In this document: positions 16,372 to 64,000 of the stretch, piece after piece
Layout: every line of letters starts with the position of its first letter
Numbering within the stretch: the stretch's first letter is position 1
Source of the DNA: Candidatus Nomurabacteria bacterium
GTDB taxonomy: Bacteria; Patescibacteriota; Minisyncoccia; Phycocordibacterales; UBA9973
Assembly (NCBI GenBank): GCA_963832025.1
Contig: CAWHSF010000003.1
Coordinates: 15,665 to 79,664, forward strand
Direction of reading: 5' to 3'
Length of the DNA: 64,000 bases
Made by a program: the position numbers and the translations under genes
The notes under the pieces: generated by a model
What the model saw: only the letters and a program-made list of their open reading frames with translations
Databases searched by the model: none
Told to the model about the DNA's origin: nothing

Positions 16372-16442
16372 TGGGAGATCGTCTAATGGTAGGACATATC
16401 CCTCTGGAGGATATTATCTTGGTTCGAGTCCAAGTCTCCCAG
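16372..16442 (+). tRNA. tRNA-Gln (anticodon CTG)
   Basis: Hand-folded cloverleaf: acceptor TGGGAGA/TCTCCCA (U1:A72), D arm GTCT/GGAC, anticodon stem TATCC/GGATA with loop CTCTGGA, T arm CTTGG-TTCGAGT-CCAAG, discriminator G. No CCA is encoded. Confidence 0.85.
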
Positions 16443-16465
16443 CAGATTCGTGTTACACTAATACA

Positions 16466-17029
16466 ATGAAATACTTCGGTATGATTGTTGGGTTGGCCTG
16501 GATTGTCTTCGCCCTCGTATGGCTCATAAACGCTTTTAGCGCGAAGCGTAATGTCTCGAACTCGTGGCGGCGAAACTCATGGTTGCGCATAATTATTGCC
16601 CTTTGCGTCTATTTTTTATTTCGCGAGCAGCTTCAACGCTTAATCCTTGCTGGGCACATATCTTCTACAAATCTTTTTCTTGGCGCCATCGGAGCGCTTC
16701 TCACCGCCCTAGGCATCGGCATCGCTATCTGGGCACGCCTCTATCTCGGTACGAACTGGGGTATGCCGATGACTCTGAAAGAGAATCGTGAGCTTGTGAT
16801 GAGTGGGCCGTACAGCTATATACGTCATCCTATCTATGCAGGCGTTATGCTCGCCATGATCGGCACAGTATTTGTCGTAGGTCCATGGCTGTTGGTAGTG
16901 TTTGCCCTCTACTTCCTTTATTTTCTTTTCAGCGCCACGTCAGAAGAGAAGACTTTAATGAAAGAATTTCCGAATGTGTATCCGGCCTACAAAAAACGCA
17001 CGAAAATGCTCATCCCGTTTGTCTTGTAG
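16466..17029 (+). CDS. isoprenylcysteine carboxyl / phospholipid methyltransferase-family membrane protein
   Basis: Polytopic protein with GPYSYIRHPIYAGVML. Visibly higher G+C than neighbouring genes. Confidence 0.7.
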   Translation: MKYFGMIVGLAWIVFALVWLINAFSAKRNVSNSWRRNSWLRIIIALCVYFLFREQLQRLILAGHISSTNLFLGAIGALLTALGIGIAIWARLYLGTNWGMPMTLKENRELVMSGPYSYIRHPIYAGVMLAMIGTVFVVGPWLLVVFALYFLYFLFSATSEEKTLMKEFPNVYPAYKKRTKMLIPFVL

Positions 17030-23509: not shown

Positions 23510-23626
23510 ATCCCGTACGAAATCGCAAACGCAGAAAGTAAATAAAATTATGAAATCTATAAAAAATATTATAAATAATAAAAAGGAAAATTATGCATAA
23601 GCGTTCGCGTTTTATTTCGTACGGGA
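23510..23626. repeat. IR cassette copy B (117 bp)
   Basis: The left arm ATCCCGTACGAAATCGCAAACGCA pairs with the right arm GCGTTCGCGTTTTATTTCGTACGGGA. The AT-rich core is homologous to copy C. The right arm encodes MHKRSRFISYG of the next ORF. Confidence 0.65.
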
Positions 23627-25497
23627 CTCCAATCATAATTTTTGCTCTCATTTTCGCAATGGGATTCATCGGTGCGCCGAAGGCTTTTGCCGCGACTCAA
23701 GTAATCACCGCAACCGGCACGGGTTCATGGACAATCCCCGCAGGAGTGACTTCTGTTCAGGTAGAACTATGGGGTGGCGGAGGTGGAGCTGGAGAATATG
23801 GAGGCGGTTCAGGAGCGTATGTAAAAGAAACAGGACTATCTGTAACACCTGGGAATAGTATTACATACAATATAGCAACTGGTGGTGGACATGGGGCAGT
23901 AGGTTCTGCGGGTGCTGGCGGAACTGGCTATTATTCGGGCGGAACAGGAGGGGCTCATACTGGTTACGCTGGAGGAGGAGGTGGAGGAGGTTCTTCTTCC
24001 GTTGTTGTTAGCGGAACGACTTATATTGCATCTGGAGGAGGAGGTGGAGGACTAACTATTACTCTTGCTACCGCCGCTTCTGGTTCAAGTGGTGGTAATG
24101 GAGGTGGAGGAAATGGTATGGGTGTTGGTTGTGCTGGAGGTGGAGGAGGTTCGGGAACAGTAGGAGGAAATTCCGCTGGAGCTGCTGGCGGAACTGGCGG
24201 AACTGGCGGAACTAATCAAACAGGAACAAATGGATCCCCTACATCATATGGTGGTGGTTCATCGGCTGGAGGTAGTGGAAATGGAGCTGCTGGTGGTGCT
24301 AATAATGGAGGAAATGGGTCAGGCGGAGCGGCTGGAGGAACGAGTGGAACACCAAACGGCGCAAGTGGTTCTGGTTCCGATTCAGGCGGTGGAGGATATG
24401 GAGTCTCTTCAGGAACAGGAGGTAACGGAGGACAACCTGGAGCTGGGTCGGGAGGAGGTAGTATTGGTGGCACAGGTGGCGCAGGAGAACTTGTTATAAC
24501 TTATACTGCCAGTAGTAATGACACCGACAGCATGACCGGCACAACTTTTATTATCAAGGACCCAGTCATCGGCACGATGGGTGGCTATAATACTTCTACC
24601 AATTTTCAAATGGTTGATTCCGGTGACACTATTTTTACCAACGTAAATTCTTCCACAAATTTTATCGGGCATTTTGGATTTTTATATTACCCGCAAGTAA
24701 CGCTTGGCACTTTGACTGCCACTCCGGTAGGCATGCAGACAAATCTAAGTTGGCCAGCTTCCGTCGGATACGACGGATGGAATGTTTCGGGATATAACAC
24801 TGGTTGGTCTTCTACCTCCGGTGGTCCATACACATTTACTTCTGTTGGCAGTTCCACTAGTTATTCATATACCAGCCTAGCACCTGGGACATATTATTAT
24901 GTTGTACAAACTTTGGATGCTTTTGGTAATGTTATCGGCACATCCAACGAAGCTTCAGATACTATTTTACCAGTTATCACTTACAGTATTAATGCCAGCA
25001 CCAACAACTCTGGTTCTTCTTACACAGTTCCGCTTAACACCCTCACCACGGCTGCGGCATCGGGCTCGAACGAAAGCACAATTAATTCTATTTGGACAAA
25101 CATCAGCACAAATGCCGGAAGTGGAGTAGTTGTAACGGTGCAATCCGCAAATGGAGATTTAAAATCTACGTCTGTTCCGGGAAATACCATTCCGTCTGCT
25201 ACCGCAACCATGGCTGCCGGCACTGCCAATTACGGTATCTGTATTAAATCGGTCACGCAAACTAGTGGAGCAACTTTGACAAAAGGAGGTAGTTTCCCAA
25301 GTACCACTTGCACAACAACAGCAAATGGAAATACCGTTTCCGCGGTCACTACCAGCTCTCAAAGTCTCTTGACTGCAGGAGGATTAATTAATACTGGTGT
25401 CGGAGAAATTATGGTTGATGCGGAAAATAATAACGTCACTCCAGCACACACAGATTATTCGGATACTTTGACTTTCATTGCGACGAGTACATTTTAG
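23593..25497 (+). CDS. secreted surface protein: glycine-rich domain + FN3-like module + C-terminal WxL-like domain shared with the next two genes
   Basis: Signal peptide (..APKAFA/ATQ). Has TGSWTIPAGVTSVQVELWGGGGGAG ... GGAGELVITY, an FN3-like segment, and a last ~165 aa that closely match 25615.. and 26853.. (VTVQSANGDLKS, IPSATATMA, DTLTFIATSTF). Confidence 0.75.
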   Translation: MHKRSRFISYGTPIIIFALIFAMGFIGAPKAFAATQVITATGTGSWTIPAGVTSVQVELWGGGGGAGEYGGGSGAYVKETGLSVTPGNSITYNIATGGGHGAVGSAGAGGTGYYSGGTGGAHTGYAGGGGGGGSSSVVVSGTTYIASGGGGGGLTITLATAASGSSGGNGGGGNGMGVGCAGGGGGSGTVGGNSAGAAGGTGGTGGTNQTGTNGSPTSYGGGSSAGGSGNGAAGGANNGGNGSGGAAGGTSGTPNGASGSGSDSGGGGYGVSSGTGGNGGQPGAGSGGGSIGGTGGAGELVITYTASSNDTDSMTGTTFIIKDPVIGTMGGYNTSTNFQMVDSGDTIFTNVNSSTNFIGHFGFLYYPQVTLGTLTATPVGMQTNLSWPASVGYDGWNVSGYNTGWSSTSGGPYTFTSVGSSTSYSYTSLAPGTYYYVVQTLDAFGNVIGTSNEASDTILPVITYSINASTNNSGSSYTVPLNTLTTAAASGSNESTINSIWTNISTNAGSGVVVTVQSANGDLKSTSVPGNTIPSATATMAAGTANYGICIKSVTQTSGATLTKGGSFPSTTCTTTANGNTVSAVTTSSQSLLTAGGLINTGVGEIMVDAENNNVTPAHTDYSDTLTFIATSTF

Positions 25498-32092: not shown

Positions 32093-32465
32093 GGAAAATC
32101 TTAAAAAAGTAATTTCATTGCATCAAGCATCAAATATTTCTGGGTATCACCAGGACTATTTGAGCGCCCTAATACGTAAAAATGAAATAAAGGGGGTGAA
32201 GATGGGAGGCAATTGGTTCACCACCGAGGAGGCAATAAAAAACTATATTTTCAAGCAGCAAATCCGACATAAAAATTGGCTGATTAAATTTTTTCTCTAC
32301 TTTAAAAAGATAAATAAAAATTTTATTTACTCATTGCTTTTTTTGATACTTCTTGCGGTAGGTATATATTTTTACAATAAAAAATTCGGGGGCACGGAAG
32401 CAACGACACCAAACACACCAGCTCCGACTATTAATAATAGTGGCACAGAAGAATTAAAATTCTAA
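32091..32465 (+). CDS. HTH (excisionase/MerR-like) domain protein with one TM helix
   Basis: [46 protein letters not shown] followed by a TM helix ([18 protein letters not shown]). Its stop overlaps the next ATG (TAATG). Confidence 0.55.
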
Positions 32466-35400
32466 TGAAAACTTTTTTTAATTTCAAAAGAATAAATTCC
32501 CGTCATCATATATCTTCTGTTTTTTCTTTTTTATTTTTCGTTTTCTTTGTCCTATCTTCTTTTTTCTATCTTCTATCTCCTGCTTCCGCTATCGCTTACA
32601 CCACCGGTGTGCCATCGATAATAAATTTCCAAGGACGATTGATGGACACAAGTGGCAATCTTTTGGGTGGCTCGGGAACAAGTTATTGTTTTCGTTTTTC
32701 GATTTACGACAGCTTGGACAATACCGGAAGCAATGTAAAATTGTGGCCAGCCGGCACTCCGACAAATAACACTCTCACTGTGAGACAAGGTGTCTTTGAT
32801 GCACAAGTCGGAGTCGCAGATAGTTTAAGCGGATACAATTTCCAGAGCGATAACACCATCTACATGAATGTGGAAGTCGCGGCGCAGATTTCCGGTTCTT
32901 GCTCCGGTGTAACTTACGATACGCTTTATCCCCGCCCACAAATCCTGGCTGCTGCTTTCGCCATCACTGCCGGCACCGTAACTGGATTCGCTCCGGCAGC
33001 CGGAAAAACTTTGACCGTAAATAATTCAATCACTTTGACCGGCACCGATTCCACCACCATGACTTTGCCGACAACTTCCAAAACTCTCGCAGCCAACGAC
33101 GGCAGTAATTGGACTTTTGCTTCTCAAGCAATCGGTGACTTGGCTTACGCAACGAGTACTACTGCTTACGGTAGGTTAGCCGATGTAGCAGCCGGTCAAC
33201 CTTTACTCTCTGGTGGAACTTCTACCGCTCCCGCCTATGCTGGTTACACTTTCTCTGGAACTTCTGCGAAGACTTACACCTTCCCAACTACCACCGCAAC
33301 ATTAGCAAGAACTGACGCCGCGCAAACATTTACCGGAGTGCAAACATTTTCTTCCGCACCGACATTTAGCAGTATCACCGGCAGTACCCAATGCTTGCAA
33401 GTCAACAGCAGTGGTGTGGTCAGTGGCACAAGCGCAGCTTGCGGAGGAGGAGGTGGTTCAACTGCTTGGAGCAGTATCACCAACCCAAGCGGAAATCTTT
33501 CTTTGGCAATGGCTGGTGACACCAGCACTTTCACTTACGGAGCGACAACCGGTTCAGCAAACTTGTTCAACTTAACCGACACCTCTTCCAATACCGGCAC
33601 CGGAGTTTTGTTGAATGTCTCAACTGCCAGTGGTTCAACTTTAAATCCATTTTCCGTGACTACCGCCGGTGCAACAAATCCGAGCTTGTATGTCGGTTCT
33701 AATGGTAACGTCTCAATTGGAACCTCAATTACAAATACTGCAGTTCTGCAAGTACAAGCACCGGTTCCGGAAAGTAATCTTTTTGCTTTTGCGAACCATG
33801 ATTTTTCTCTGGGTAGCGTAGGAACTGCCATGACGATTGATACCGGAACTACCTCCGGAGATACCTATGTGGATATGCAAGCTTACAACGCTGGTGGAGT
33901 TAATGGCGGTCCTTTAGTTTTTAACGCTGCTGGTGGTAATGTCGGGATTGATACAAACGACCCAACTACCGCTCTCACCGTTAATGGGAGTATTTCCAAT
34001 CTCCTTAATCCCAGTTCAGCTTTTTTAAATGTTGTAGGTTCGACATCAATTACTTCTGCTTCCGTGGTCTACGTCTCCGGTAACTATGCCTATGTGGCAG
34101 ATTATACCGGTAATGAACTTGATATTGTTGACATTACCAATCCGAATGCTCCCTATGTGGCTGGCACATTAGGCGGAATTAATCATATCTCTTCCATCTA
34201 CGTTTCCGGTCGTTATGCCTATGTGACGGACAAAAGTATTGGTGACATGACTATCATTGATGTTTCCAATCCGATTTCACCGACTGTGGTCGGTACATTA
34301 ACCGGACTTAATACTCCTACCTCCATCTACGTTTCTGGTCGTTATGCCTATGTAGCGGATAGCGGTAGTGGTGATATGTATGTGATTGATGTTTCCACTC
34401 CGAGATTACCGATTGTGGTTGCCACCTTAACCGGGCTGAGTAGTCCTTCCTCCATCTATGTTTCCGGTCATTATGCCTATGTAGCAGATAGTGGTAGTGG
34501 TCACATGTCTATCATCGATATTTCCGATCCGGTTTCACCGAATGTGATAGGTACAGCAACCGGACTTGGTAGTCCCTCCTCTGTCTATGTCTCCGGTCGT
34601 TATGCCTATGTGACGGATACGGGTAGTGGTAACTTGTATTCCATTGACCTTTCCAACCAAGCTTCTCCGAGTGTGGTTGGTACGCTACCAGGATTTATTA
34701 CTCCAACTGATGTCTATGTTTCTGGTAATTTTGCATATGTAACAGACAGTGACGGTGAACTCGACGTCGTTGATATTTCCGACCCGACTACTCCGATTTA
34801 TGATACATATGCAGGACTTACTGCTCCCGACTCGGTCTATGTCTCCGGTCAGTATGCCTATGTCGCGGATAGTGGTGGCGGCGATATGGCTGTCATTGAC
34901 CTAACCGGAACACAAACAACTTCCTTGACCGCCGGGAGTGCGAACATCGGCAACTTGCAGATTGCTAATGATTCTTTGGTTGGTGGTCAACTGCAAGTAA
35001 ATGGTGCCCTGACAGCCAACGGTGGAAACTTTAACAGTGGAGTTGCAGTAAATGGAAATATTTCCAATACCATTTCATCTTCTTCTCCTCCGACTGTCGT
35101 TGCTACTGCCACCGGGCTGACTAATATCTTAACTGACTATGTCTCCGGTAACTATGCGTATGTAGGAACTGGTACCGGTGGTACTGGTTATATGTATATC
35201 GTTGATATTTCCAATCCGACTGCTCCGAGTGTTGTCGGTACATTATCAGGGGTTGGTAAGATTAATTCTATCTATGTTTCCGGTCAGTATGCCTATGTGT
35301 TAGATGATAGTAATGGCTACATGGATGTCGTTGATATTTCCAATCCGCATGCCCCAAGTGTTGTCGGTACAGTGGTAGGGTTTACTGGTCCTGTATCTAT

Positions 35401-37192
35401 CTATGTTTCCGGTCATTATGCCTATGTGACAGATGCCAATTCTCTGACTTTGTCTGTCATCGATGTTTCCAACCCGACTGCTCCGAATCTCATCGGAAGT
35501 CCATTGTCGCTGACTGCTCCTCTCTTCATCTATGTTTCCGGTCATTATGCCTATGTGACGGAAAGTGGTGGGAGCATGGATATCATTGATGTTTCCAATC
35601 CGTATTCTCTGAGTATTGTCGGTACAGCCACAGGACTTGGTTCTCTTGATGGCAATGTCTATGTCTCCGGTCGTTATGCGTATGTAACAAATACTGCTAG
35701 TAGTGGTGATATGTATGTCGTTGATGTTTCCAATCCAGTTTCTCCAAGTACTGTCGGTACATTAGGACTTTCTTGGCCTCTTGGTATCAATGTCTCCGGT
35801 CATTATGCCTATGTGACGAGTTATGCTGGTGGTGGCATGTATGTCCTTGATGTTTCCAATCCGACTGCTCCAAGTGCTGTTGCTCTTACACTCGGACTGA
35901 CTACTCCTTCTTTTATCAGGGTTTCCGGTCGTTATGCCTATGTGGTGGAATCTACTGCTAGTTCCATGGCTGTCATTGACCTCACTGGTACCCAAACAAC
36001 TTCTCTCACCTCCGGTAGTGCTAACATCGGTAACTTGCAAATTGCTAATGATGCTTTGATTGGTGGTCAACTGCAGGTGAATGGTGGTTTGACGGCAAGT
36101 GGTGGAAACTTTTCGGGGGATGTGGCGACTGAGGGAGCGTTAATTGCAAATTATCTTTCTGTTGGTCCTGGTTCTCCGTTTTCAGTAGATTCCTCCGGAG
36201 ATGTTTTAGCTTCCGGAGATGTTTCCGCTGGGTCATTGCAACTTTCTAATGTTACCGGATCCACGCAATGTCTGCAAGCAGATTCCTCAGGAAATATTAC
36301 TGGCACCAGTTCACCCTGTGGAAGCGGTGGTGGTCTCACTGTCGGTACCACCACTGTCAGCTCCGGAACATCGGGATATGTCTTATATGACAACGGAGGA
36401 ACTTTGGGTAACTTGAATGTCACCGCCACCCCAACCGCTTCCACCATCGCCGAATGGGATGCGAACAAGAATTTGTCGGGGAATGCTTTTATTCCATCTT
36501 TCACAACAACTGCAACTGCTGGAACTACAACTACCATGACAATTGCTTCAACTGAATATCAATTTTGGACTGGAGTAAACACAAATCAAACTGTAAAACT
36601 TCCTACAACTTCTGTTGCTGCTGGTGCAACTTATGTTATAGAAAATCAAAGTACTGGTACAGGCGCGGTAACAGTGCAATCTTCCGGAGCAAACCAGATT
36701 ACTATTTTAGCTCCGGGAACAAGTGGAACATTTACTTCAACAAAAGCTGCTCCGACTGCAGCTGCTGATTGGGGATATATTTATAATGGAGCAACTGCTG
36801 CTGCTGGTGGCTCCCTCACTACTTCCGGAGCTTACCCGATTACTTTGACAGGAACAGCTTCGACAACGGTTACGTTGCCTACTACGGGAACCTTGGTAAA
36901 CTCTACAGTAGCAACTCTTTCTTCTTTGACTTCTACCGGAACGATTACGACTGGTGGATTGGGAACGGGGGCAGTTATTGGAGGAGTGACTATGACTCTC
37001 GGCTCAGATGCTTCTTATGATATTTATTATCGAGGTTCCGGTGGAGTTCTGACCCGTCTCGCAAATGGTACTTCTGGTCAATATTTGGGCGCAAATACCG
37101 GCGCCGCTCCGAGCTGGCAGACGCCAGCGGGTGGTCTCACTGTCGGTACCACCACTGTCAGACTCCGGAACATCGGGATATGTCTTATATGA
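32465..37192 (+). CDS. giant surface protein with two blocks of LVIVD-type beta-propeller repeats and tail-fibre-like repeats
   Basis: N-terminal signal/TM segment. About 15 copies of YVSG.YAYV.D...G.M.V.DVSNP..P.VVGT. Each block is followed by [27 protein letters not shown]. The ORF ends at a frame break inside duplicated DNA. Confidence 0.75.
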
Positions 37193-37932
37193 CAACGGAG
37201 GAACTTTGGGTCACTTGAATGTCACCGCCACCCCAACCGCTTCCACCATTGCCGAATGGGATGCAAACAAAATTTGTCGGGGAATGCTTTTATTCCATCT
37301 TTCACAACAACTGCAACTGCTGGAACTACAACTACCATGACAATTGCTTCAACTGAATATCAATTTTGGACTGGAGTAAACACAAATCAAACTGTAAAAC
37401 TTCCTACAACTTCTGTTGCCACTGGTCAACTTATGCTATAGAAAATCAAAGTACTGGTCCAGGCGCGGTCAAGTGCAATCTTCCGGAGCAAACCAGATTA
37501 CTATTTTAGCTCCGGGACACAACTGGAACATTTACTTCGGCAAAAGCTGCTCCGACTGCAGCTGCTGATTGGGGATATATTTATAATGAGAGCAACTGCT
37601 GCTGCTGGTGCTACCCTCACTATTTCCAATACACCGCTTACTTTCACAGGCACAGCTTCGCACGGTTTACGTTGCCTACTACGGGAACCAGTTGCATACA
37701 CTCTACAATGTAGCAACTACTTTCTTCTTTAACCTTTGGAACAATTACGACTGGTGGATTGGGAACGGGGGCAGTTATTGGATGGAGTGACTATGACTCT
37801 CGGCTCAGATGCTTCTTATGATATTTATTATCGAGGTTCCGGTGGAGTTCTGACCCGTCTCGCAAATGGTACTTCTGGTCAATATTTGGGCGCAAATACC
37901 GGCGCCGCTCCGAGCTGGCAGACGCCAGCGGG
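36332..37932 (+). repeat. tandem duplication of an ~800-bp coding unit; the second copy is riddled with indels
   Basis: 36332..37132 recurs at 37133..37932. The first ~25 bp and last ~146 bp are identical, while the middle differs by many small indels and substitutions (for example cagctccgg versus cagactccgg). Confidence 0.8.
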
Positions 37933-40900
37933 AGGATCACAAACTCCATGGACTGGAAATATAAATGCTGCTGGATATACTCTCTTTGGTAACAACACCG
38001 CTGGAGGTGCACTAAACCTAGCAAGTACTAGTGGTACAGGTTCCAATGATGTGGTTAACATTAAAGGTGGTACGGCTGGAGGAACAACAATCGCTAGCTT
38101 CTTTGGGGCGGGAACGTATGCTGGAAGAGTTGGAATTGGAACGACGACACCGAGTCAATTATTTAGCGTAGGGAGTACCAGTCAATTTACAGTTGATTCT
38201 TCGGGTAATTTGAATTCCCAGACATTATCCATTGGGGCCGGACTAACGTCAGTTGTGGTCAGTGGAACTGGAACCGGTTCAGATGGTAGTCCAAATGGAA
38301 CTTATTATTTTAGAGGCGTTGAAAACGGGGCAAACTACTACCAGCTTGGTAGCAGTAGTTGGTATATAACTTATAACGGTTCCGGCACTTGGGGTATTTG
38401 TATTTATCTCAATTCCAGCACTTGCAGCACGTATGGCAAGTATTTTTCTCAATCCGGTACCGTTCCTACTCCGCCTAACAACAGTTCTTGGTCTGACACC
38501 GTTTACACAGGGTCAATTACGACTGCCGCAGGTACGTCAAGTAATCTGACTGTCGATAACGCAGGTGACATAACATCCTACGGAACTTTAACTGCAGTTT
38601 CTCTTGCCACGACTTCCGGCCAACCATTTGAATTGCCGACGAGCAATGCTACCGCCGGATGTCTGAAAACAAGCGCTACAGGACAAATGTCTGTCGCTAC
38701 TTGCGGAGATGTAGACAATCAATCATTCAATGCCAATGGTACTTATTCCATGCCTTCTGGTGCCTTGATGATAGTTGTCGAAACTTGGGGTGGTGGCGGC
38801 GGTGGTGGCGGCGGCGCAGGTGGCAACAACTTAAACAGTGCTCACGCTGGAGGAGGAGGTGGAGGAGGTGCATCTTATGTAAATAGTATTTTTTCAGCAA
38901 CAACACTAGGCACACCGGGAACAACCACGCTTCAAGCTATCGTGGGTGGAGGAGGTGCCGGAGGTGGAGGAGGAAATAATGTAAACGGCACTGCTGGAAA
39001 TTCTGGTGGTTCAAGTTGTTTATCTACCACAAATTGTACAAGTGGAACCATTTACGTGGAAGGATGGGGAGGTGGAGGTGGCGCTCAGGGTGCAATATCA
39101 AACACCCAAGGTGCCGGTGGTGGTGGAGGAGGAGGTGCTGAAGCAGTTGGAGGTAATGCAAGTACAACAACAGGTGGTACCGGAGGAGCGCCACAAGGTT
39201 CTACAGCCGGTACAGCAAACTCAGGATACGGAGGTGCCGGAGGTGCCACTTCAACAAATGCGGCGGTAAATGGAGCATCAGCACAGTATGGAGGCGCAGG
39301 CGGAGGCGCATCAACAACAACAGGAGCAAATGCATCAGGTAACGGAGGTGGCTCAGTAATCGGAGGCTCGGGTGGAGGTGGAGGAGGTTCGGTCGCTGTC
39401 ACAACTTATGCAAAAGAAAATGGAGGTGCCGGAGGTACTGGTCAAGCCATTGCAGGTGGAGGTGGAACCGCAGGAACAACCAATGGCGCTGGAGGAAGTA
39501 ATGGAAATCCCGGCGTTGGAGGAGGAGGAGATGGTGGAGGTGGAGGTGCAACGAACAGCACAGGTACGGGAGGTACGGGAGGTACGGGAGGAGCGAGAGG
39601 TGGCGGTGGCGGTGGCGGTGGCGCAACTGGTACAGGAGGTCATGGAGGTACAGGAGGCACAGGAGGTGCAGGTTTTGTGCGCGTCTGGTCATACATGGGA
39701 CAAGGTGCCGACTTGGCAGAAATATATGGCACGATGGATCCAACTTTGTCTCCGGGTGATATCGTCGCAGTTGACTCCGCCATGCAAGCCGGAGTAAAAA
39801 AGAGTAGTGTCGCTTATGATTCTACTGTGATCGGAGTCGTTTCCACTAACCCTGGCATCGTTATTGGTAATGTTTCAGACCCGGGAGCCACACCAGTGAT
39901 GGTAGCACTTGCCGGACGTGTACCGATGAAAGTAAATATGGAAAATGGTCCGATTAAGAGCGGAGATTATCTAACGGCATCTTCAACTCCGGGTGAAGCG
40001 ATGAAAGCCACCAAGGCAGGATTAGTAATCGGAGAAGCAATTACTCCGTACAACACCACTGACATGCCGGGCATCGTGATGGCATTTATTAAGGCCGGAC
40101 CTTCAAACGGTTCAAAACTTACCGACTTGATTCCCGGACTGACGACAGATGATGGAACAACTACAGACAGCTCAACAACGAATAGTAATTCAACAACATC
40201 TATTTCTCCACCGACCACGACTGATACGATTGGAACATCTTCTACTACAACTGCGACTACACCATCTGCTCCGACCCAAACGATAGAACAGCAAGCTCTC
40301 GCCTATTTCAACACCGGTCGCGCGGTACTTGCCACGCAAGTTGATTTATCGGAAGTAACCACCGACAGAGTCAGTGCCGGATTGGAAGTTATTACTCCGG
40401 ACTTATATGCCACAAACGTACACACCGACACAATTCAATCCGCAACCGGAGACAACATCGGTTTGATTTTGGATGATAGCGGAGAGTTTACAATCGGTAA
40501 ACAAACAATTAGCACAGTGGTAAATCCCGATGGCACCACCACACCTACGACAATATACACCCCGGAAATAACGATGGATAATCTGGGCAACGCTGTCTTT
40601 AGCGGCGGCTTGACCATCGGAACTCCGCAACAACCAAACGGAATTACGATGTATGACACTACGACTGGCAGCCCATATTGTTCTCGCATCACAAATGGAA
40701 CGATGGTCACCTCTCCGGGCAAGTGTAGTGACATCTTGGGATTACCAATACAAAATACCGCTTCGGTAATAAACAGTACGAATCCAAATTCAGGTAATAA
40801 TAATTCTTCAAACAATACGAACAACACTACAACAACCTCCACGGATAACACCACAGCACCTGCAGACACTTCGGACACTTCGGACACTTCGACAAGCACA

Positions 40901-41164
40901 GACAATCCTTCTTCTACAGATACAACTACTACCCCGGCAACGACCCCGAACCAATCCTCACAAAGTTCGGATGGTACGGGGCAGGCTTCCGATACTCCGG
41001 CAAGCACACCAGCAGCAACACCTGGCACCTCTACAACTACTCCGGCAGTTACTTCTCCGCCGGCAACAACAGACACGACTACGACACCCAGTCCGACAGC
41101 TGATACTTCGACTGCTCCAGCCTCGCCACCATCCACTGACACCACTGCCACGCCGGGTTCATAA
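37736..41164 (+). CDS. giant surface protein, probable continuation of 32465..37192: glycine-rich domain, beta-rich module, S/T/P-rich tail
   Basis: The N-terminus repeats the C-terminus of the previous ORF ([51 protein letters not shown]). It has YSMPSGALMIVVETWGGGGGGGG ... GAGFVRVWSY as in 23593... The tail is extremely Thr/Ser/Pro-rich. Confidence 0.75.
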   Translation: MEQLRLVDWERGQLLDGVTMTLGSDASYDIYYRGSGGVLTRLANGTSGQYLGANTGAAPSWQTPAGGSQTPWTGNINAAGYTLFGNNTAGGALNLASTSGTGSNDVVNIKGGTAGGTTIASFFGAGTYAGRVGIGTTTPSQLFSVGSTSQFTVDSSGNLNSQTLSIGAGLTSVVVSGTGTGSDGSPNGTYYFRGVENGANYYQLGSSSWYITYNGSGTWGICIYLNSSTCSTYGKYFSQSGTVPTPPNNSSWSDTVYTGSITTAAGTSSNLTVDNAGDITSYGTLTAVSLATTSGQPFELPTSNATAGCLKTSATGQMSVATCGDVDNQSFNANGTYSMPSGALMIVVETWGGGGGGGGGAGGNNLNSAHAGGGGGGGASYVNSIFSATTLGTPGTTTLQAIVGGGGAGGGGGNNVNGTAGNSGGSSCLSTTNCTSGTIYVEGWGGGGGAQGAISNTQGAGGGGGGGAEAVGGNASTTTGGTGGAPQGSTAGTANSGYGGAGGATSTNAAVNGASAQYGGAGGGASTTTGANASGNGGGSVIGGSGGGGGGSVAVTTYAKENGGAGGTGQAIAGGGGTAGTTNGAGGSNGNPGVGGGGDGGGGGATNSTGTGGTGGTGGARGGGGGGGGATGTGGHGGTGGTGGAGFVRVWSYMGQGADLAEIYGTMDPTLSPGDIVAVDSAMQAGVKKSSVAYDSTVIGVVSTNPGIVIGNVSDPGATPVMVALAGRVPMKVNMENGPIKSGDYLTASSTPGEAMKATKAGLVIGEAITPYNTTDMPGIVMAFIKAGPSNGSKLTDLIPGLTTDDGTTTDSSTTNSNSTTSISPPTTTDTIGTSSTTTATTPSAPTQTIEQQALAYFNTGRAVLATQVDLSEVTTDRVSAGLEVITPDLYATNVHTDTIQSATGDNIGLILDDSGEFTIGKQTISTVVNPDGTTTPTTIYTPEITMDNLGNAVFSGGLTIGTPQQPNGITMYDTTTGSPYCSRITNGTMVTSPGKCSDILGLPIQNTASVINSTNPNSGNNNSSNNTNNTTTTSTDNTTAPADTSDTSDTSTSTDNPSSTDTTTTPATTPNQSSQSSDGTGQASDTPASTPAATPGTSTTTPAVTSPPATTDTTTTPSPTADTSTAPASPPSTDTTATPGS

Positions 41165-48671: not shown

Positions 48672-49580
48672 TTAAATCGCATTAACTGCTATACTTGAAT
48701 TATTTTTAAAATCTACATTTTTGGCATTGTGATTATTATAAAAACGCTTAGCTAATTCACTCACTTGCATCCATAGAAATGACCAGATCCAAACTAGAAT
48801 AATGTATTTAAAAGAAATTGCTGTAGTAAATATACCAAAAAATGCAATAAGGCTGGCAATAATTTGAGTTATGATAGTTGCCCAAATAACTTGTTTTGAT
48901 GGTAAGAATTTATACCAAGGTTTTTCAGTATGTGCAACATAAACCAGCATGTGTCCTGATACTGTAAGTTTTAAGAAAAATAATGTTTGGATAATAATCC
49001 ATGGTGCGTGAAAAACGGTAATAGCAATCCAAAGTAAAATCATACTATTACAAATACCAGTGAATCCAAAAAGCAGACTAAGGGCAAAACGCTTTCTTGG
49101 ATTCACACTAGCTGGAGCTTTGGCTAAAGTAACTCGGTCAAAAGCGAGAGAAATAATGGGAATATCATTCAAAAGAGCAATCAAAATAATTTGCACTGGC
49201 GTCAGAGGATAAGTGCCAAAAATCACACCAATAATAGCAATTGTCACAATTAATCTGAAACTTTCCGAGATTCGATAAAGCGAATAATTATACAACCGAG
49301 TAAAAACATTTCTTGCTTCTATAATTGCATCTTTGATCACAGCGATACCTGGCAGAGTTAAAACTATATCTGCTGTGCCCTTGAGCGCATCAACTGCATT
49401 TGCCACAGCGAAACCCACATTCGCTGCTTTGATTGGTGGCACATCATTTACACCGTCACCCGTAACCGCCACGACATATTTTTCTGGCAAAGATTGTGCC
49501 ATTTTCACTAAATCATATTTATCTTTCGGAAGAACTTCAGCAAAGCCAGCAAGTGAATTGAATTTTTCTTTTACTCCATC
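48672..49580 (-). pseudogene. P-type ATPase, C-terminal third only (5'-truncated)
   Basis: Contains GFAEVLPKDKYDLV, TGDGVNDVPPIKAANVGFAV and C-terminal TM helices. The frame runs without a start into the 3' end of the tRNA-Asp-like gene. Confidence 0.7.
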
Positions 49581-49653
49581 AACACCGACCGGATTTGAAC
49601 CGGCAACCTCCCGCGTGACAGGCGGGTGCTCTAACCAGTTGAGCTACGATCGC
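49581..49653 (-). tRNA. tRNA-Asp (anticodon GTC)-like with a non-complementary acceptor 3' strand
   Basis: The D, anticodon (CCCGC-CTGTCAC-GCGGG) and T arms fold normally. The 5' strand GCGATCG faces CGGTGTT instead of CGATCGC, and homology is lost at about nt 68 (49585). Confidence 0.55.
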
Positions 49654-60065: not shown

Positions 60066-60848
60066 TTACTGCAACTCTACAGCAGAAATGTCATACATAG
60101 GAATAAATTCTTTGGCAACCACGGGTTCGGAAAATGGTTCTGGCCAAGTAAAATTCAAATTGGAAGTTTGCAACGGACTGAGTTGGCTTAAATAAGTACT
60201 GCTGACCGAGACCGCATTACCGGAAGCGCCATAGAGAATGGCAACCACATTTAAATTTGGAATCGTAAATAAGGAACTATTTTTTATAGTTGCAGAGAGC
60301 TGTGGCGCAGTCGTTGCATTTAAGAGAGAGATGTTGGAAACTAACAATTTTAACTGATCGATTTTTTCTTGCGGAACCTGAATCCAGTTGGGTGTGCTGG
60401 TGAATTGAAATGTTGTATAGACCGGCACGGAATTTCCCACGGCTATCGCTGGCGCAAAAATCGCAAAATTGCTACCCGGTGGAATAAAAGTTGTGCCATC
60501 GCGACTACCGATATAGATATTGTTTGCATCGGCAAAACGAAATCTATAACTCACCTCTTCCGCTGAATAAGTTTTGTTGTAATTCACGACATAAGCGACG
60601 GCATTGTAACGTCCCGGTAAAACTTCAAAGGCTCTCTCCCAAAGAACTGCCGGCGGGATAGCTTGACTGAGGCAAGCATTGGGGCACGAACCTCCGCAAT
60701 CTATGCCTGTTTCATTTCCGTTTTTTATTCCATCGTAGCAAGTCGGCGGTTTGTTAAATTGTGGAAGAATTATCAAAAATGCCAGTAATGCAAAAAATAA
60801 AATTATAACAATAATATAAAAAATCTGTCTCCTTAAGGCCCAATTCAT
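60066..60848 (-). CDS. membrane-anchored extracytoplasmic hypothetical protein
   Basis: N-terminal TM helix and a Cys-rich motif (CYDGIKNGNETGIDCGGSCPNAC). ATG 60848 is preferred over the track start. Confidence 0.5.
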   Translation of the reverse strand: MNWALRRQIFYIIVIILFFALLAFLIILPQFNKPPTCYDGIKNGNETGIDCGGSCPNACLSQAIPPAVLWERAFEVLPGRYNAVAYVVNYNKTYSAEEVSYRFRFADANNIYIGSRDGTTFIPPGSNFAIFAPAIAVGNSVPVYTTFQFTSTPNWIQVPQEKIDQLKLLVSNISLLNATTAPQLSATIKNSSLFTIPNLNVVAILYGASGNAVSVSSTYLSQLSPLQTSNLNFTWPEPFSEPVVAKEFIPMYDISAVELQ

Positions 60849-60951
60849 AGAGATATAATAACACCCGGTAGTGAGTTTTGGCAACGCACAACGTGCGTAA
60901 ATTTTTTAAAATTTACATTGCCAAAATCTACTACCGGGAACATTAAAAATT

Positions 60952-61009
60952 GAAAAATAAAACGCCAATAAACAGAAGAGTCGCCGACAAGAGCGAGCTC
61001 TTCGGCGAC
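60952..61009 (-). terminator. strong GC hairpin plus U-rich tail ending the GC-rich two-gene cassette
   Basis: GTCGCCGAAGAGC-TC-GCTCTTGTCGGCGAC on the minus strand, followed by TCTTCTGTTTATTGGCGTTTTATTTTT. Confidence 0.6.
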
Positions 61010-61031
61010 ACATGAGATTCTTTAAGGGGTC

Positions 61032-61347
61032 TCAACCCTTGGTGGCGGTATGGATTCCGCCGAAATGCTGACGCACGATAGCAGAAAGCGCTGGTGCAGG
61101 CACAAAGGGCAGGTTTGGATCCTCGTGACCATAAGTCCAAGTCGTTGAAAGCGACCGATCCCCCCAGAACCCTCAGGATTGACGCAGGATCGATGTGACC
61201 TGCCAGCACGACCTGGCCGTCCTTATCGCTTTTGTAGACCCAGCTAAGCTCTGAAAGAGCAAGGAGGTCTGGTCGGTGAAAGCGGCCTTGAATGGTGACA
61301 ACGGTGAATTGCTCGTCCCTCTCTGTGGGCAGCGGATTGTGACACAT
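61032..61347 (-). CDS. hypothetical protein of the GC-rich cassette (likely frame slip in the C6 run 61160..61165)
   Basis: AAAGGAG lies 7 nt before the ATG. The track ORF (60943..61347) reads through the terminator. After a 1-nt slip the frame reads ...GDRSLSTTWTYGHEDPNLPFVPAPALSAIVRQHFGGIHTATKG and stops at 61032. Confidence 0.45.
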
Positions 61348-61362
61348 AAAAGTTGCTCCTTT

Positions 61363-61554
61363 TTAACCTTTGTGCTTTTGTTGGGTTACCGGCACCGAGG
61401 GTGCCAGATCAGACGGCGGAATTGACTCAGTCATGCTGGGCCTCCTCCGAAGCTCTTTTTCAAAGACTGTTGTTGGGACTTCCCCCCTTGGCAAATCACG
61501 ATCGTCATCCTCAGTCGATCGTGATAAACCGCCTCCATAACCGCTCATTGCCAT
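61363..61554 (-). CDS. small hypothetical acidic/Pro-rich protein of the GC-rich cassette
   Basis: 63-aa ORF with GGAGAAG upstream. Its stop lies 15 nt before the next ATG. No family recognised. Confidence 0.45.
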   Translation of the reverse strand: MAMSGYGGGLSRSTEDDDRDLPRGEVPTTVFEKELRRRPSMTESIPPSDLAPSVPVTQQKHKG

Positions 61555-61605
61555 AGAACTTCTTCTCCCTTGTTCCCGGTTATTCTACAACAAAACATGC
61601 AAAAA

Positions 61606-62013
61606 TCAAGCAAGGAATTCCATAAGCACACGCTTTTGATTTTCGTGCATTTCGTGTTGTTTTAAATCTTCTTTTTTGGAAACATAAGCAATATTTACAA
61701 TTTCATTTCTTATGAAAATTTTTTGCTTCGGCAAAACTTTTGCATGATAAAAAACAAAAAGTTTTGGTGTTTTACTTATCTTCCCACTGTGATATACATC
61801 AACAGAAATAATATTTCCGATTTTCGCATTTACATTTAGCTCTTCTTTTATTTCTCGAAGTAGTCCCGCATCTGTTGTCTCCCCCACATTCAATCTGCCT
61901 CCCGGCAAAATCCATTTCTTTCCACCTTCCTGTTTCAAAATTACAAAAGAATTTTTGTATTTCAAAATGGCTTTTTGTGTAATCTGCCCGACAAATATTT
62001 TTTCTTTTTCCAT
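61606..62013 (-). CDS. NUDIX hydrolase
   Basis: Nudix box GGRLNVGETTDAGLLREIKEELNV. Confidence 0.85.
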   Translation of the reverse strand: MEKEKIFVGQITQKAILKYKNSFVILKQEGGKKWILPGGRLNVGETTDAGLLREIKEELNVNAKIGNIISVDVYHSGKISKTPKLFVFYHAKVLPKQKIFIRNEIVNIAYVSKKEDLKQHEMHENQKRVLMEFLA

Positions 62014-62674
62014 TTATTTATTAAAAACTACATATTCCCCTTCGCCCATAACTTCCACTTTTCCATCGACAATTTCGAGAGCCATTTGATCATCTAGACC
62101 ATAAACAATTTGTGGAGTAGTTTTTGCAAATTCGCTAAAGTTTCTTTTCTTAATGTGCGGAAGAATTGGAATTTAGATGTGGACGAAAATAAAAATCTAT
62201 AAAATTTAAAGCCTTTGTTAGTTTCATATCCAAATTTTTCTTATAAACATTGCTTTCTCTTATTACTCAAGGCAATGGTGGACAGCGTCACAATACTCCC
62301 CGCACTAACTCCAACCCATACTTTATTTTTTAAAAGTTCTGGTAGTAATTCTTTTAATCCAGATTCATTAATCCATCGCATTAAATGTGTAGAATCTCCA
62401 CCAGAAAAAAACAGAACATCGGCATATTTCAAGTCTCTCGTTGCCAATTCCATTTTGGTAGAGCAGAAATATCTACAATATCAATCGATTTTATATTTTT
62501 GTTGTTTAAATTGATAAAGATTGTCTAATAAGCCAGATTTTATTATGTGCTTCACATTTGAGCAGTCGGAATAAAAGCAATATTTATTTCTTCTGCCTTT
62601 TTGCCCACCAATTCCAAAAGCGCATCGGCAATTTTTTTATTTGTTATTCCACCTGAAGTTAAAAGTAGTTTCAT
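62014..62674 (-). pseudogene. peptidase S51 (PepE-like) gene broken by at least three frame shifts
   Basis: Pieces in different frames: MKLLLTSGGITNKKIADALLELVGKKAEEINIAFIPTA / ADVLFFSGGDSTHLMRWINESGL..VWVGVSAGSIV / FIDFYFRPHLNS / QIVYGLDDQMALEIVDGKVEVMGEGEYVVFNK. Confidence 0.6.
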
Positions 62675-62733
62675 AAACCTAGCATAACAAAAAACTACAT
62701 TTTTGTGTAGTTTTTTAGACCTTAAATACATTG

Positions 62734-62911: not shown

Positions 62912-64000
62912 TTCTTAACAGGAATCGAAACATTAGTACTTCTCAGCTTAACGCATTACTGCGCTTACACCTAAAGCCTATCAACGTGATCATCTCTCAC
63001 GGTTCTTAACGATTCCTAATCTTGGAGCTGGCTTCCCTCTTAGATGCTTTCAGAGGTTATCCATTCCCGACATAGCTACCGAGCATTCCACTTGGCAGTA
63101 GAGCTCGTACACCAGAGGTCAGTTCACTTCGGTCCTCTCGTACTAGAAGCAAATCTCCTCAAGAATCAACGCCTGCAGTAGATAGGAGACCAACCTGTCT
63201 CACGCATCTACAATTTTACTCGACATAATTCGAATAAAACTTTTCCAATTACTTGGGGATTGGACTATACATTCTATCGATTTTTCAGTAAGGTCAACAT
63301 TTAGTCTCTACAGAGTAATCAAATATAATTTCTCCTCGGTGTTGTCCTCTCGTATCGCCATGGTCGGATTTCTCCGATATAAGCTCGACTTCTTCACATC
63401 ATAAATTTCTACGTGACCGCCGTGATACAATTTAATGTACTTGGTTGTACCTGCATTCAATTGCATCATATAATCTTCGATTAAAACAGTTCAAATTTTT
63501 AAGTTCAAATTTCCTCTGAGGGTTCAAACTGTTCAATACTACTCGATCTCATTGACAGAATCTGATAAGTCCTGAACGGTCTGAACCCAGCTCGCGTACC
63601 TTTTTAATTGGCGAACAGCCAAACGCTTGGGAGCTTCTCCACCCCGCGCTAAGGTGAGCCGACATCGAGGTGCCGAACTCCGCCGTCGCTATGGACTCTT
63701 GGGCGGAACTAGCCTGTTATCCCTAGAGTAGCTTTTATCCGTTAATCTTCCACCGCATCTAATGCGAACGGTCGGTTCACTATGTTCTGCTTTCGCATCT
63801 GCTTGAGATGTACCTCTTGCAGTCAAGCTAGCTTGTGCCATTACACTATCGGCACGGTTTCCATTCGCGCCTAGCTAACCTTAATAAACTCCTCCGTTAC
63901 TTTTTAGGAGGATAGCGCCCCACTAAAACTACCCACCAGATACTGTCTCAATACGTTTTTGCCGTCTTGGTTAGAACATGCCTTCGGTAAGAATGGTATT
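62912..64000 (-). rRNA. rrl: 23S ribosomal RNA, 3' portion (continues beyond window), interrupted by an insert
   Basis: Minus-strand landmarks: GGGATAACAGGC, GCACCTCGATGTCGGCTC, GGTACGCGAGCTGGGTTCAGA, CGTGAGACAGGTTGGTC, AGTACGAGAGGACC and CTGAAAGCATCTAAG. The 3' end position is approximate. Confidence 0.9.
63205..63575 (-). other. 371-nt intervening sequence in 23S domain V (group-I-like boundaries)
   Basis: Removing 63205..63575 restores GGGTTCAGACCGT|CGTGAGACAGGTTGG, collinear with the E. coli GGGTTTAGAACGTCGTGAGACAG. The 5' exon ends in U and the insert ends in G. It holds only a 53-codon ORF (63308..63469). Confidence 0.7.

Follow-up and report, generated by a model that had tools for sequence, protein, structure and literature searches.

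A GC-rich transcription unit upstream of rodA in a Candidatus Nomurabacteria genome and the variable site that it probably occupies

The window analyzed here is a stretch of 64,000 nucleotides (nt) from a Candidatus Nomurabacteria genome (contig CAWHSF010000003.1, positions 15,665 to 79,664), and the element in question is a GC-rich island between a NUDIX gene and the gene of p272, a protein whose gene precedes rodA. On the minus strand, the order runs from the 3' part of a 23S rRNA gene through a 5S rRNA gene, a decayed peptidase S51-like gene, and the NUDIX gene to the island, followed by p272 and RodA/FtsW (Table 1). The island comprises two co-oriented open reading frames (ORFs), ORF1 and ORF2, which are separated by 15 nt and lie in one common reading frame. 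A first-pass annotation, made from the letters of the sequence, had placed such a pair between the NUDIX gene and a SEDS-associated gene, and the coordinates were verified. It had also proposed a horizontally acquired, toxin-antitoxin-like module. The analysis supports a compositionally atypical, self-contained accessory transcription unit at this locus, one that probably occupies a hypervariable expression site conserved in the lineage.

The base composition of the island is unusual for the window. Its G+C content, which had been estimated by eye at more than half, was computed at 52.5%, against a window mean of 39.9% (z = 2.4), and 1.9% of the 609-nt windows are equally GC-rich, which places the island in the top 2%. 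Its trinucleotide profile is deviant too (z = 2.4, top 2.4%), and a 50-nt GC profile sets the edges at about 60975 and 61560. Equal or higher G+C is found elsewhere in the window at 23.6-24.7, 32.7-33.7, and 38.5-41.2 kb; these stretches correspond to large glycine-rich or repeat proteins whose G+C at third codon positions (GC3) is low (0.30-0.37). In the island, GC3 amounts to 0.57-0.62, versus 0.27-0.39 in the neighboring genes. The island DNA matched no phage or plasmid record and has no repeat copy elsewhere in the window. Likewise, no phage signal was detected in phage records, viral contigs, PHROGs, or BFVD, the neighbors being rRNA, NUDIX, p272, and RodA genes.

The unit appears to be equipped with its own expression signals. 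A consensus scan predicts a sigma-70-type promoter, and this promoter aligns with those found at the same site in L075, a metagenome contig of 823 nt, and in nine other relatives (consensus GCTTGAC(T/A)TTT..TGTGATATAAT). At the other end, the GC hairpin and U-tail that had been said to close the island are indeed present, the predicted hairpin being 30 nt long (61009-60980) and followed by TCTTCTGTTTATT, and L075 and other relatives have a terminator at the equivalent position. Of the 22 positions formed by the ORF2 stop codon and a conserved motif of the 3' untranslated region (UTR), 20 are the same as in L075, where the motif directly follows the stop of the P0005 gene, and the conserved p272 promoter block is seen in L075 and other relatives as well. 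Since the promoter, 5' UTR, Shine-Dalgarno (SD) site, terminator, and p272 promoter all align with those of the relatives, the expression signals would be native to the lineage and not imported along with the genes. No promoter-like site was found on the plus strand between 60700 and 61800 in a promoter scan.

The GGAG-type SD sites of the two ORFs had been described as rare elsewhere in the window. Indeed, an SD core precedes 3 of the 52 long ORFs, ORF2 among them, and the remaining pairs of SD and start codon in the window all lie inside genes. Many start codons of the window are found 6-8 nt past a TGnTATAAT box, which suggests that leaderless mRNAs may be widespread in this genome. The anti-SD motif is missing in about half of Parcubacteria (PMC9297842), and a nearly SD-less genome fits this reported loss; no copy of the 16S 3' end, which carries the anti-SD, was present among the fetched loci. 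In this genome, the p272 promoter is split by a 75-nt palindromic insertion (60864-60938) that resembles a miniature inverted-repeat transposable element, with 21-nt terminal inverted repeats (CCCGGTAGTAGATTTTGGCAA / TTGCCAAAACTCACTACCGGG) and a flanking TGTT duplication. This element sits between the -35 and -10 boxes of p272, is absent from L075, has no second copy in the window, and brings a new -35 box, TTGCCA, 18 nt before TATTAT. A perfect 10-nt inverted repeat flanking the island (61571-61580 and 60933-60942) was taken as a coincidence, about 0.3 such pairs being expected by chance.

Table 1. Features of the island and its surroundings (positions in the window; promoters, terminator, and SD sites are predictions)
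Feature	Position	Strand	Basis or remark
23S rRNA, 3' part	64000 down to 62912	minus	Rfam scan
5S rRNA	62840-62734	minus	Rfam scan
Decayed peptidase S51-like gene	about 62690-62020	minus	tblastx
NUDIX gene	62013-61606	minus	Pfam
GC-rich island	60952-61560	minus (ORFs)	between NUDIX gene and p272
Promoter, sigma-70-type: -35 TTGATT, 16-nt spacer, -10 TAGAAT	61582..61609	minus	consensus scan; predicted
SD-like GGGAG, 10 nt before ORF1 ATG	61565..61569	minus	aligns with SD/ATG of the same site in relatives
ORF1, 63 codons, hydrophilic	61363..61554	minus	ORF list
207-nt segment, from ORF1 ATG to the base before ORF2 ATG	61348..61554	minus	pairwise and multi-locus alignment
Perfect 10-bp palindrome ATCACGATCG..CGATCGTGAT within the 207-nt segment	61495..61525	minus	inverted-repeat scan, fold
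SD AGGAG, 8 nt before ORF2 ATG	61356..61360	minus	
ORF2 as it stands, 134 aa	61347-60943	minus	runs through terminator into conserved p272 promoter
ORF2 corrected, about 104 aa	61032..61347	minus	stop TGA 61034-61032
G6 run (C6 on plus strand), 1-nt frame disruption in ORF2	61160..61165	minus	homology, tblastx, periodicity
Stop codon and conserved 3' UTR motif TGAGACCCCTTAAAGAATCTCA	61013..61034	minus	alignment with L075
Intrinsic terminator: hairpin GTCGCCGAAGAGCTCGCTCTTGTCGGCGAC (61009-60980), T-rich tail (60979-60967)	60967..61009	minus	predicted
p272 promoter region, conserved GGCGTTTTATTTTTCAATTTTTAATGTT ... TGTTATTAT, ATG 60848, leaderless type	60849..60966	minus	alignment, promoter scan
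p272, membrane-anchored Cys-motif protein, 260-272 aa, precedes rodA	true start ATG at 60848	minus	
RodA/FtsW	59864-58929	minus	

Homology indicates that ORF2 is a real gene carrying a frameshift. A word-indexed protein search with ORF2 returned the self match only, and an exhaustive phmmer search of 1.84 billion representatives gave a sole accepted homologue, P0005, a protein of 109 amino acids (aa) encoded on L075; matches to P0003, P0004, and P0006 were judged spurious, as they involve only short repeated stretches of long repetitive proteins. Residues 2-76 of ORF2 are 41% identical to P0005 (pairwise BLASTP E 1e-15), and after a 1-nt correction of the frame the identity is 41% over the full length (104 versus 109 aa), with W70, T71, G73, D76, L79, F81, V82, P83, H94, and F95 conserved past the shift. 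The first-pass annotation had called for a slip in a C6 run if ORF2 was to stop ahead of the terminator, and this proved correct: homology, the tblastx frame, which changes between 61165 and 61157, and the GC3-GC2 codon periodicity, which changes phase at the run, all place the break there. Codons 1-62 follow the frame set by the ATG and the remainder is in the +1 frame, which ends 22 nt ahead of the terminator hairpin. The tail of the 134-aa version is an artifact, and the called gene model is wrong, because this tail crosses the terminator and the conserved p272 promoter; the sole hydrophobic stretch of ORF2 is located in it.

The family thus delineated has two members, with 5.8 and 1.84 billion sequences searched and none added by a two-sequence profile. 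Its motifs are FHRPDL, LSELS, GH, WTxG, and FVP. Neither ORF2 nor P0005 matched Pfam, NCBIfam, PHROGs, PADLOC, or PDB sequences, and no relative of ORF2 was found in viral contigs. An AlphaFold model of the corrected protein (mean predicted local distance difference test, pLDDT, 64.6) has a beta-alpha-beta-beta-alpha-beta-alpha topology, for which Foldseek returned only generic ferredoxin-like neighbors from PDB and BFVD (E >= 0.015) that were not used to assign a function.

L075 is syntenic with the window. It carries, in this order, the promoter TTGATTTTTATTAATTTTGTTGTAGTATAA, the SD site GGGGAGG, the P0005 gene, TGAGATCCCTTAAAAAATCTCA, a terminator, GGCGTTTTATTTTTCAAATTTTCGTGTTACTATATCTCT, and the ATG of p272, and its promoter, 3' UTR motif, terminator position, and p272 promoter all align with those of the window. 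The nonsynonymous divergence (dN, Nei-Gojobori) between the two p272 genes is 0.119 over the first 96 codons. As this independent assembly is arranged alike, the stretch between ORF2 and p272 is unlikely to stem from a chimeric join, one of the outcomes that could have explained the island. The P0005 gene stands alone, with no partner ORF upstream or downstream, and has no G-run at the site of the frame break. Its composition is ordinary (GC 0.44, GC3 0.37); high GC is thus a property of the window copy and not of the ORF2 family. The differences between the two loci, namely an extra module-like segment in the window and an ORF2 identity of 41% next to a p272 dN of 0.119, fit a modular replacement.

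In the present assembly, ORF2 has one extra G in its G6 run, and is thus an inactivated copy, a copy in an off phase, or the product of an assembly error. That the frameshift is nothing but a homopolymer assembly error is possible, though doubtful; ORF2 would then be intact and yield its 104-aa product, and the interpretation would otherwise stand unchanged. A single base in a homopolymer is the commonest kind of assembly error, the downstream frame is open and conserved to the orthologous stop, and codon periodicity continues past the shift. On the other hand, the 134-aa reading is also found in the public record, and a real pseudogene lies about 1 kb away, the peptidase S51 (PepE)-like sequence between the 5S rRNA and NUDIX genes (62020-62690), which is broken by four or more frameshifts or stops. 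Programmed +1 ribosomal frameshifting at the run, yielding the full ORF2 protein, seems extremely improbable. The sequence CUG GGG GGA might allow a tRNA-Gly in the P site to re-pair in the +1 frame, and an SD-like GAGGG is situated 4 nt upstream of the site, much as an SD-like element precedes the +1 frameshift site of prfB. However, there is no stop in the 0 frame, which is open for 72 more codons, nor any obviously slow codon; the orthologue has no run and needs no shift; and the genome scarcely uses SD sites.

ORF1 is of a different nature. The 207-nt segment that begins with its ATG has no counterpart in L075, its edges being ambiguous within about 25 nt, and neither blastn nor tblastx found similarity to any relative; ORF1 thus lies within an insertion specific to the lineage, located in the leader or start region. 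Its G+C by codon position (0.58/0.52/0.47) lacks in-frame periodicity. A word-indexed protein search found no homologue, Pfam, NCBIfam, PHROG, PADLOC, and PDB sequences gave no match, and neither the public record nor the protein collection lists ORF1 among the called genes. As a conserved protein, ORF1 is therefore unsupported. It may well be translated, and is probably read as an upstream ORF, because in a multi-locus alignment its SD and ATG coincide with the ancestral initiation region of the site.

These results bear on the proposal of a type II toxin-antitoxin or similar selfish pair, horizontally acquired, in which ORF1 would be the antitoxin and ORF2 a toxin inactivated by the frameshift. 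The resemblance is apparent: two small co-oriented cistrons of about 60 and then about 100 aa, 15 nt apart, are preceded by SD sites and framed by a promoter and a terminator of their own in DNA of atypical composition. The product of ORF1 is acidic and seemingly disordered, Cas2 (E 0.1) is among the weak Foldseek neighbors of the ORF2 model, which shows a small ferredoxin-like alpha/beta fold, and the decay of such a module would fit a frameshifted toxin. Yet the pair is not conserved, the ORF2 homologue being solitary in L075 behind the same strong promoter, and ORF1 has neither a homologue nor coding periodicity. Pfam, NCBIfam, PADLOC, PHROGs, and PDB sequences were empty for toxin, antitoxin, defense, and phage families, Foldseek gave nothing at E <= 0.001, and the expression signals appear native to the lineage. 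We therefore consider this explanation very unlikely. A type I system was also rejected: the maximum Kyte-Doolittle hydropathy of ORF1 is 0.19 (17-residue window), and the plus strand has no promoter-like site around the island. Of the horizontally acquired two-gene module, then, the atypical accessory unit stands and the conserved pair does not; import from a high-GC host is not borne out either, since the ordinary composition of the L075 orthologue argues against a recent import. Neither protein had been recognized in the first-pass annotation, and the searches added only the one homologue of ORF2.

One further possibility is that the island encodes a structured non-coding RNA or a cis-regulatory leader, for example an attenuator of p272-rodA, in which the ORFs are incidental. 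It is a GC-rich island with its own promoter and terminator, next to an rRNA operon in an AT-rich genome; the ORF1 segment combines a missing coding signal with a perfect 10-bp palindrome, and the terminator lies directly upstream of p272. Nevertheless, Rfam 15, run on the whole window and on the island, gave nothing in the island at the gathering threshold, and relaxed filters, up to an E value of 10, produced only chance-level matches (E >= 2.2). ARAGORN found no tmRNA, and the folding energy of the sense strand is unexceptional (z = -1.4), for the whole unit and the leader alike. ORF2 shows codon periodicity as well as homology to a protein, p272 starts leaderless behind a conserved promoter of its own, and the unit is missing entirely from some relatives. 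This explanation is thus very improbable indeed.

The wider setting of the unit emerged from a search of genomes and metagenomes with p272, which yielded 31 related loci, Nomurabacteria- or Paceibacteria-like, at 53-71% identity. No relative closer than 71% turned up in these scans, and none of the 31 loci showed DNA or protein similarity to the island. At least nine relatives (L003, L004, L005, L006, L037, L038, L040, L042, and L050) share a common architecture, hereafter called the slot. It begins with the promoter and 5' UTR of the consensus given above, followed after about 12 nt by GGAGG and, 4-8 nt further on, by the ATG of the first of one to three small ORFs; on its 3' side, a GC-rich terminator precedes the conserved p272 promoter block. 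In L007, L035, L036, and L041, the site likewise holds small SD-led ORFs and a terminator, behind a promoter that is less conserved, and in L014 it holds a small ORF whose SD core, AGGA, is weak. In L008 and L010 there is no unit, and the 5S gene directly adjoins p272. The first-pass annotation had asked about presence or absence in relatives, and the content of the site is indeed present, absent, or different among them. Many of the relatives' contigs (L001-L014, L035-L051) end a few hundred bases upstream of p272, likely because the adjacent rRNA operon breaks short-read assemblies, which limits the visibility of the slot in metagenome-assembled genomes.

The ORFs of these modules are coding, with a G+C at second codon positions of 0.34-0.52, GC3 mostly of 0.57-0.78, and, for the L037 and L038 modules, a dN of 0.136 against a synonymous divergence (dS) of 0.566. 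Every one of them encodes a hydrophobic helix, usually with a basic tail, and they are mostly unrelated to one another; ten small proteins from the relatives had no match in Pfam, NCBIfam, PHROGs, PADLOC, or PDB sequences. Their GC3 is about twice that of the flanking genes (flank means 0.24-0.43), and nearly all are preceded by an SD site, versus 3 of 70 flanking long ORFs. Some relatives, L040 and L005, have SD-led modules in tandem arrays of two or three; the second module of L040 has an apparent terminator and promoter of its own, and its initiation region, ACAAGGAGGAAGTTCTTTATGG, is closely like that of ORF1 in the window, ACAAGGGAGAAGAAGTTCTATGG. Comparisons of close relatives suggest that modules are replaced one by one between near-identical flanks. 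L037 and L050 differ little in p272 (dN 0.010, dS 0.176) and strongly in their first ORF, ORF-A (dN 0.63, dS 0.88), and their sliding identity, 88-100% in the flanks, drops to 50-58% exactly across ORF-A. L037 and L038, in turn, have kept the first ORF, and their 3' modules are unrelated (identity 8-56%). A match of the conserved promoter pattern in one phage contig was uninformative, being a generic consensus promoter and SD before an unrelated ORF.

Runs of G are a further feature of the slot. The window has three G/C runs of at least 6 nt, two of them in the island (61160-61165 and 61482-61487), where composition predicts 0.29 (P about 0.03). The relatives' cassettes have 1.1 runs per kb, versus 0.11 in their flanks; the five observed, where 1.9 are expected, are all sense-strand G6-G7 runs, in L003, L006, L037, L038, and L040, about 2.7 times as many as their composition predicts. 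Contingency loci with homopolymeric tracts are known from Neisseria, Haemophilus, and Campylobacter, and ORF2 might similarly be a phase-variable gene switched by slippage in its G-run, the assembly having captured the off state and the G-runs of other modules behaving alike. The break falls exactly within the G6 run, whose length sets the reading frame, G-runs are enriched both in the island and in the relatives' cassettes, and the slot is hypervariable as contingency loci are. Tracts in known cases of phase variation, however, reach about 8 nt or more, whereas those of the slot are short (6-7 nt); L037 and L038 share a conserved G6 that leaves the frame intact, no run is found in L075 at the site of the ORF2 break, and the enrichment is statistically modest. 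Phase variation is therefore distinctly unlikely.

Collectively, these data make it fairly probable that the island forms a single autonomous transcription unit and occupies a hypervariable expression slot, conserved in the lineage, directly upstream of p272-rodA. A strong native promoter would drive an mRNA of about 600 nt, on which the SD-led initiation region shared with the relatives would here open ORF1, created by the 207-nt insertion. A second SD would drive ORF2, the real resident gene, whose product would be a soluble alpha/beta protein of about 104 aa; the intrinsic terminator would close the unit 22 nt past the true stop of ORF2, and p272 would be transcribed from its own, separate promoter. 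The slot would evolve by the replacement, gain, or loss of whole modules consisting of an SD and an ORF between conserved flanks, which comprise the promoter and 5' UTR upstream and the terminator and p272 promoter downstream. Strong expression, rapid turnover, the small membrane proteins of most relatives, and the cell-envelope genes nearby suggest that the slot products have an accessory role related to the envelope or to conflict.

The high GC3 of the modules would then mark them as products of recombination at the slot and not of long residence. Higher GC3 is typical of recombining bacterial genes (Lassalle et al. 2015, PMC4450053), and the excess could stem from alleles imported out of a GC-richer pool or from GC-biased gene conversion at a hot spot. 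The slot resembles such a hot spot in its mosaic replacement and in a GC3 of about twice that of the flanks; however, the excess is far greater than in the genome-wide trends described, and also more local.

Several points weigh against this interpretation. The promoter, SD sites, and terminator are consensus predictions, and the SD motifs might not act as ribosome-binding sites. The ORF2 family has two members, with a fold model of mediocre quality (pLDDT 64.6), and the orthologue in L075 is not GC-rich, so that GC enrichment is no family trait; import and biased gene conversion are both no more than candidate sources of the GC3. The window module is soluble, versus the membrane proteins of most relatives, and the slot may have no single function. 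Finally, the independent assembly of L075 covers the part from ORF2 to p272 and not the 5' side of the ORF1 insertion.

A number of known systems share features with the unit. Phage morons are autonomous units of promoter, ORF, and terminator (Cumby et al. 2012, PMC3594210), and the island resembles them in its predicted sigma-70 promoter and intrinsic terminator, its deviant GC, and its small accessory genes, present, absent, or different between collinear relatives. By contrast, the island is chromosomal and outside any phage or prophage, as indicated by the lack of matches to phage DNA, PHROGs, and BFVD, and in the slot the signals (promoter, 5' UTR, and terminator) stay while only the ORF cargo turns over. 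As in integrons, there is a fixed site with a resident promoter and unrelated ORF modules, one to three per site, whose boundaries are those of the ORFs; unlike integron cassettes, slot modules each carry an SD, and their exchange looks like homologous replacement between conserved flanks. Within about 3-5 kb, the ORFs that were called or scanned with Pfam, which are not all ORFs of this range, include no integrase; the genes in this range encode SecD, BacA, PAP2, RodA, p272, and NUDIX proteins, besides the PepE-like pseudogene and rRNA. No attI or attC was recognized at the slot, where no systematic search for them was made.

A few observations concern the rest of the window. A methyltransferase gene of the ICMT/PEMT family (16466-17029, plus strand), which adjoins tRNA-Gln (16372-16443), is the sole other long ORF with a cassette-like GC3 (0.57 versus about 0.33) and may be another recently exchanged gene next to a tRNA. 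The most compositionally deviant stretches are two glycine-rich ORFs of the plus strand, at 23593-25497 (634 aa) and 37793-41164 (1123 aa), with GC of 0.48-0.50, GC3 of 0.30-0.35, and no Pfam match; an LVIVD-repeat protein of 1575 aa (32465-37192) lies between them. Near model position 2620, the 23S rRNA gene contains an insert of about 375 nt (window about 63200-63574, minus strand) that matched no Rfam intron family, and a tRNA at 49580-49653 (minus strand) scored 54.9 bits with Rfam and is not listed by ARAGORN.

For the window itself, the result is mostly corrective: a supposed toxin-antitoxin pair appears to be one frameshifted orphan gene and an unsupported upstream ORF. The comparison with relatives suggests a broader possibility, speculative and rather unlikely as it stands, namely that an SD-poor, Nomurabacteria- or Paceibacteria-like clade of Parcubacteria keeps a dedicated rRNA-to-p272-rodA slot in which unrelated SD-dependent, GC3-rich modules are swapped through recombination at the conserved flanks and perhaps toggled by poly-G slippage. 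Small proteins of the envelope or of conflict would then be served by a cassette or contingency system that has no integrase, and a reduced, AT-rich genome would show a strong local instance of GC enrichment linked to recombination. To our knowledge, such a clade-wide pattern is unusual and has not been described. If true, it would offer a handle on the diversification of small, mostly membrane, proteins in ultra-small symbiotic bacteria and a natural test case for SD-led initiation in Parcubacteria, as well as a sharp local example in which import could be weighed against GC-biased gene conversion as the source of GC heterogeneity.

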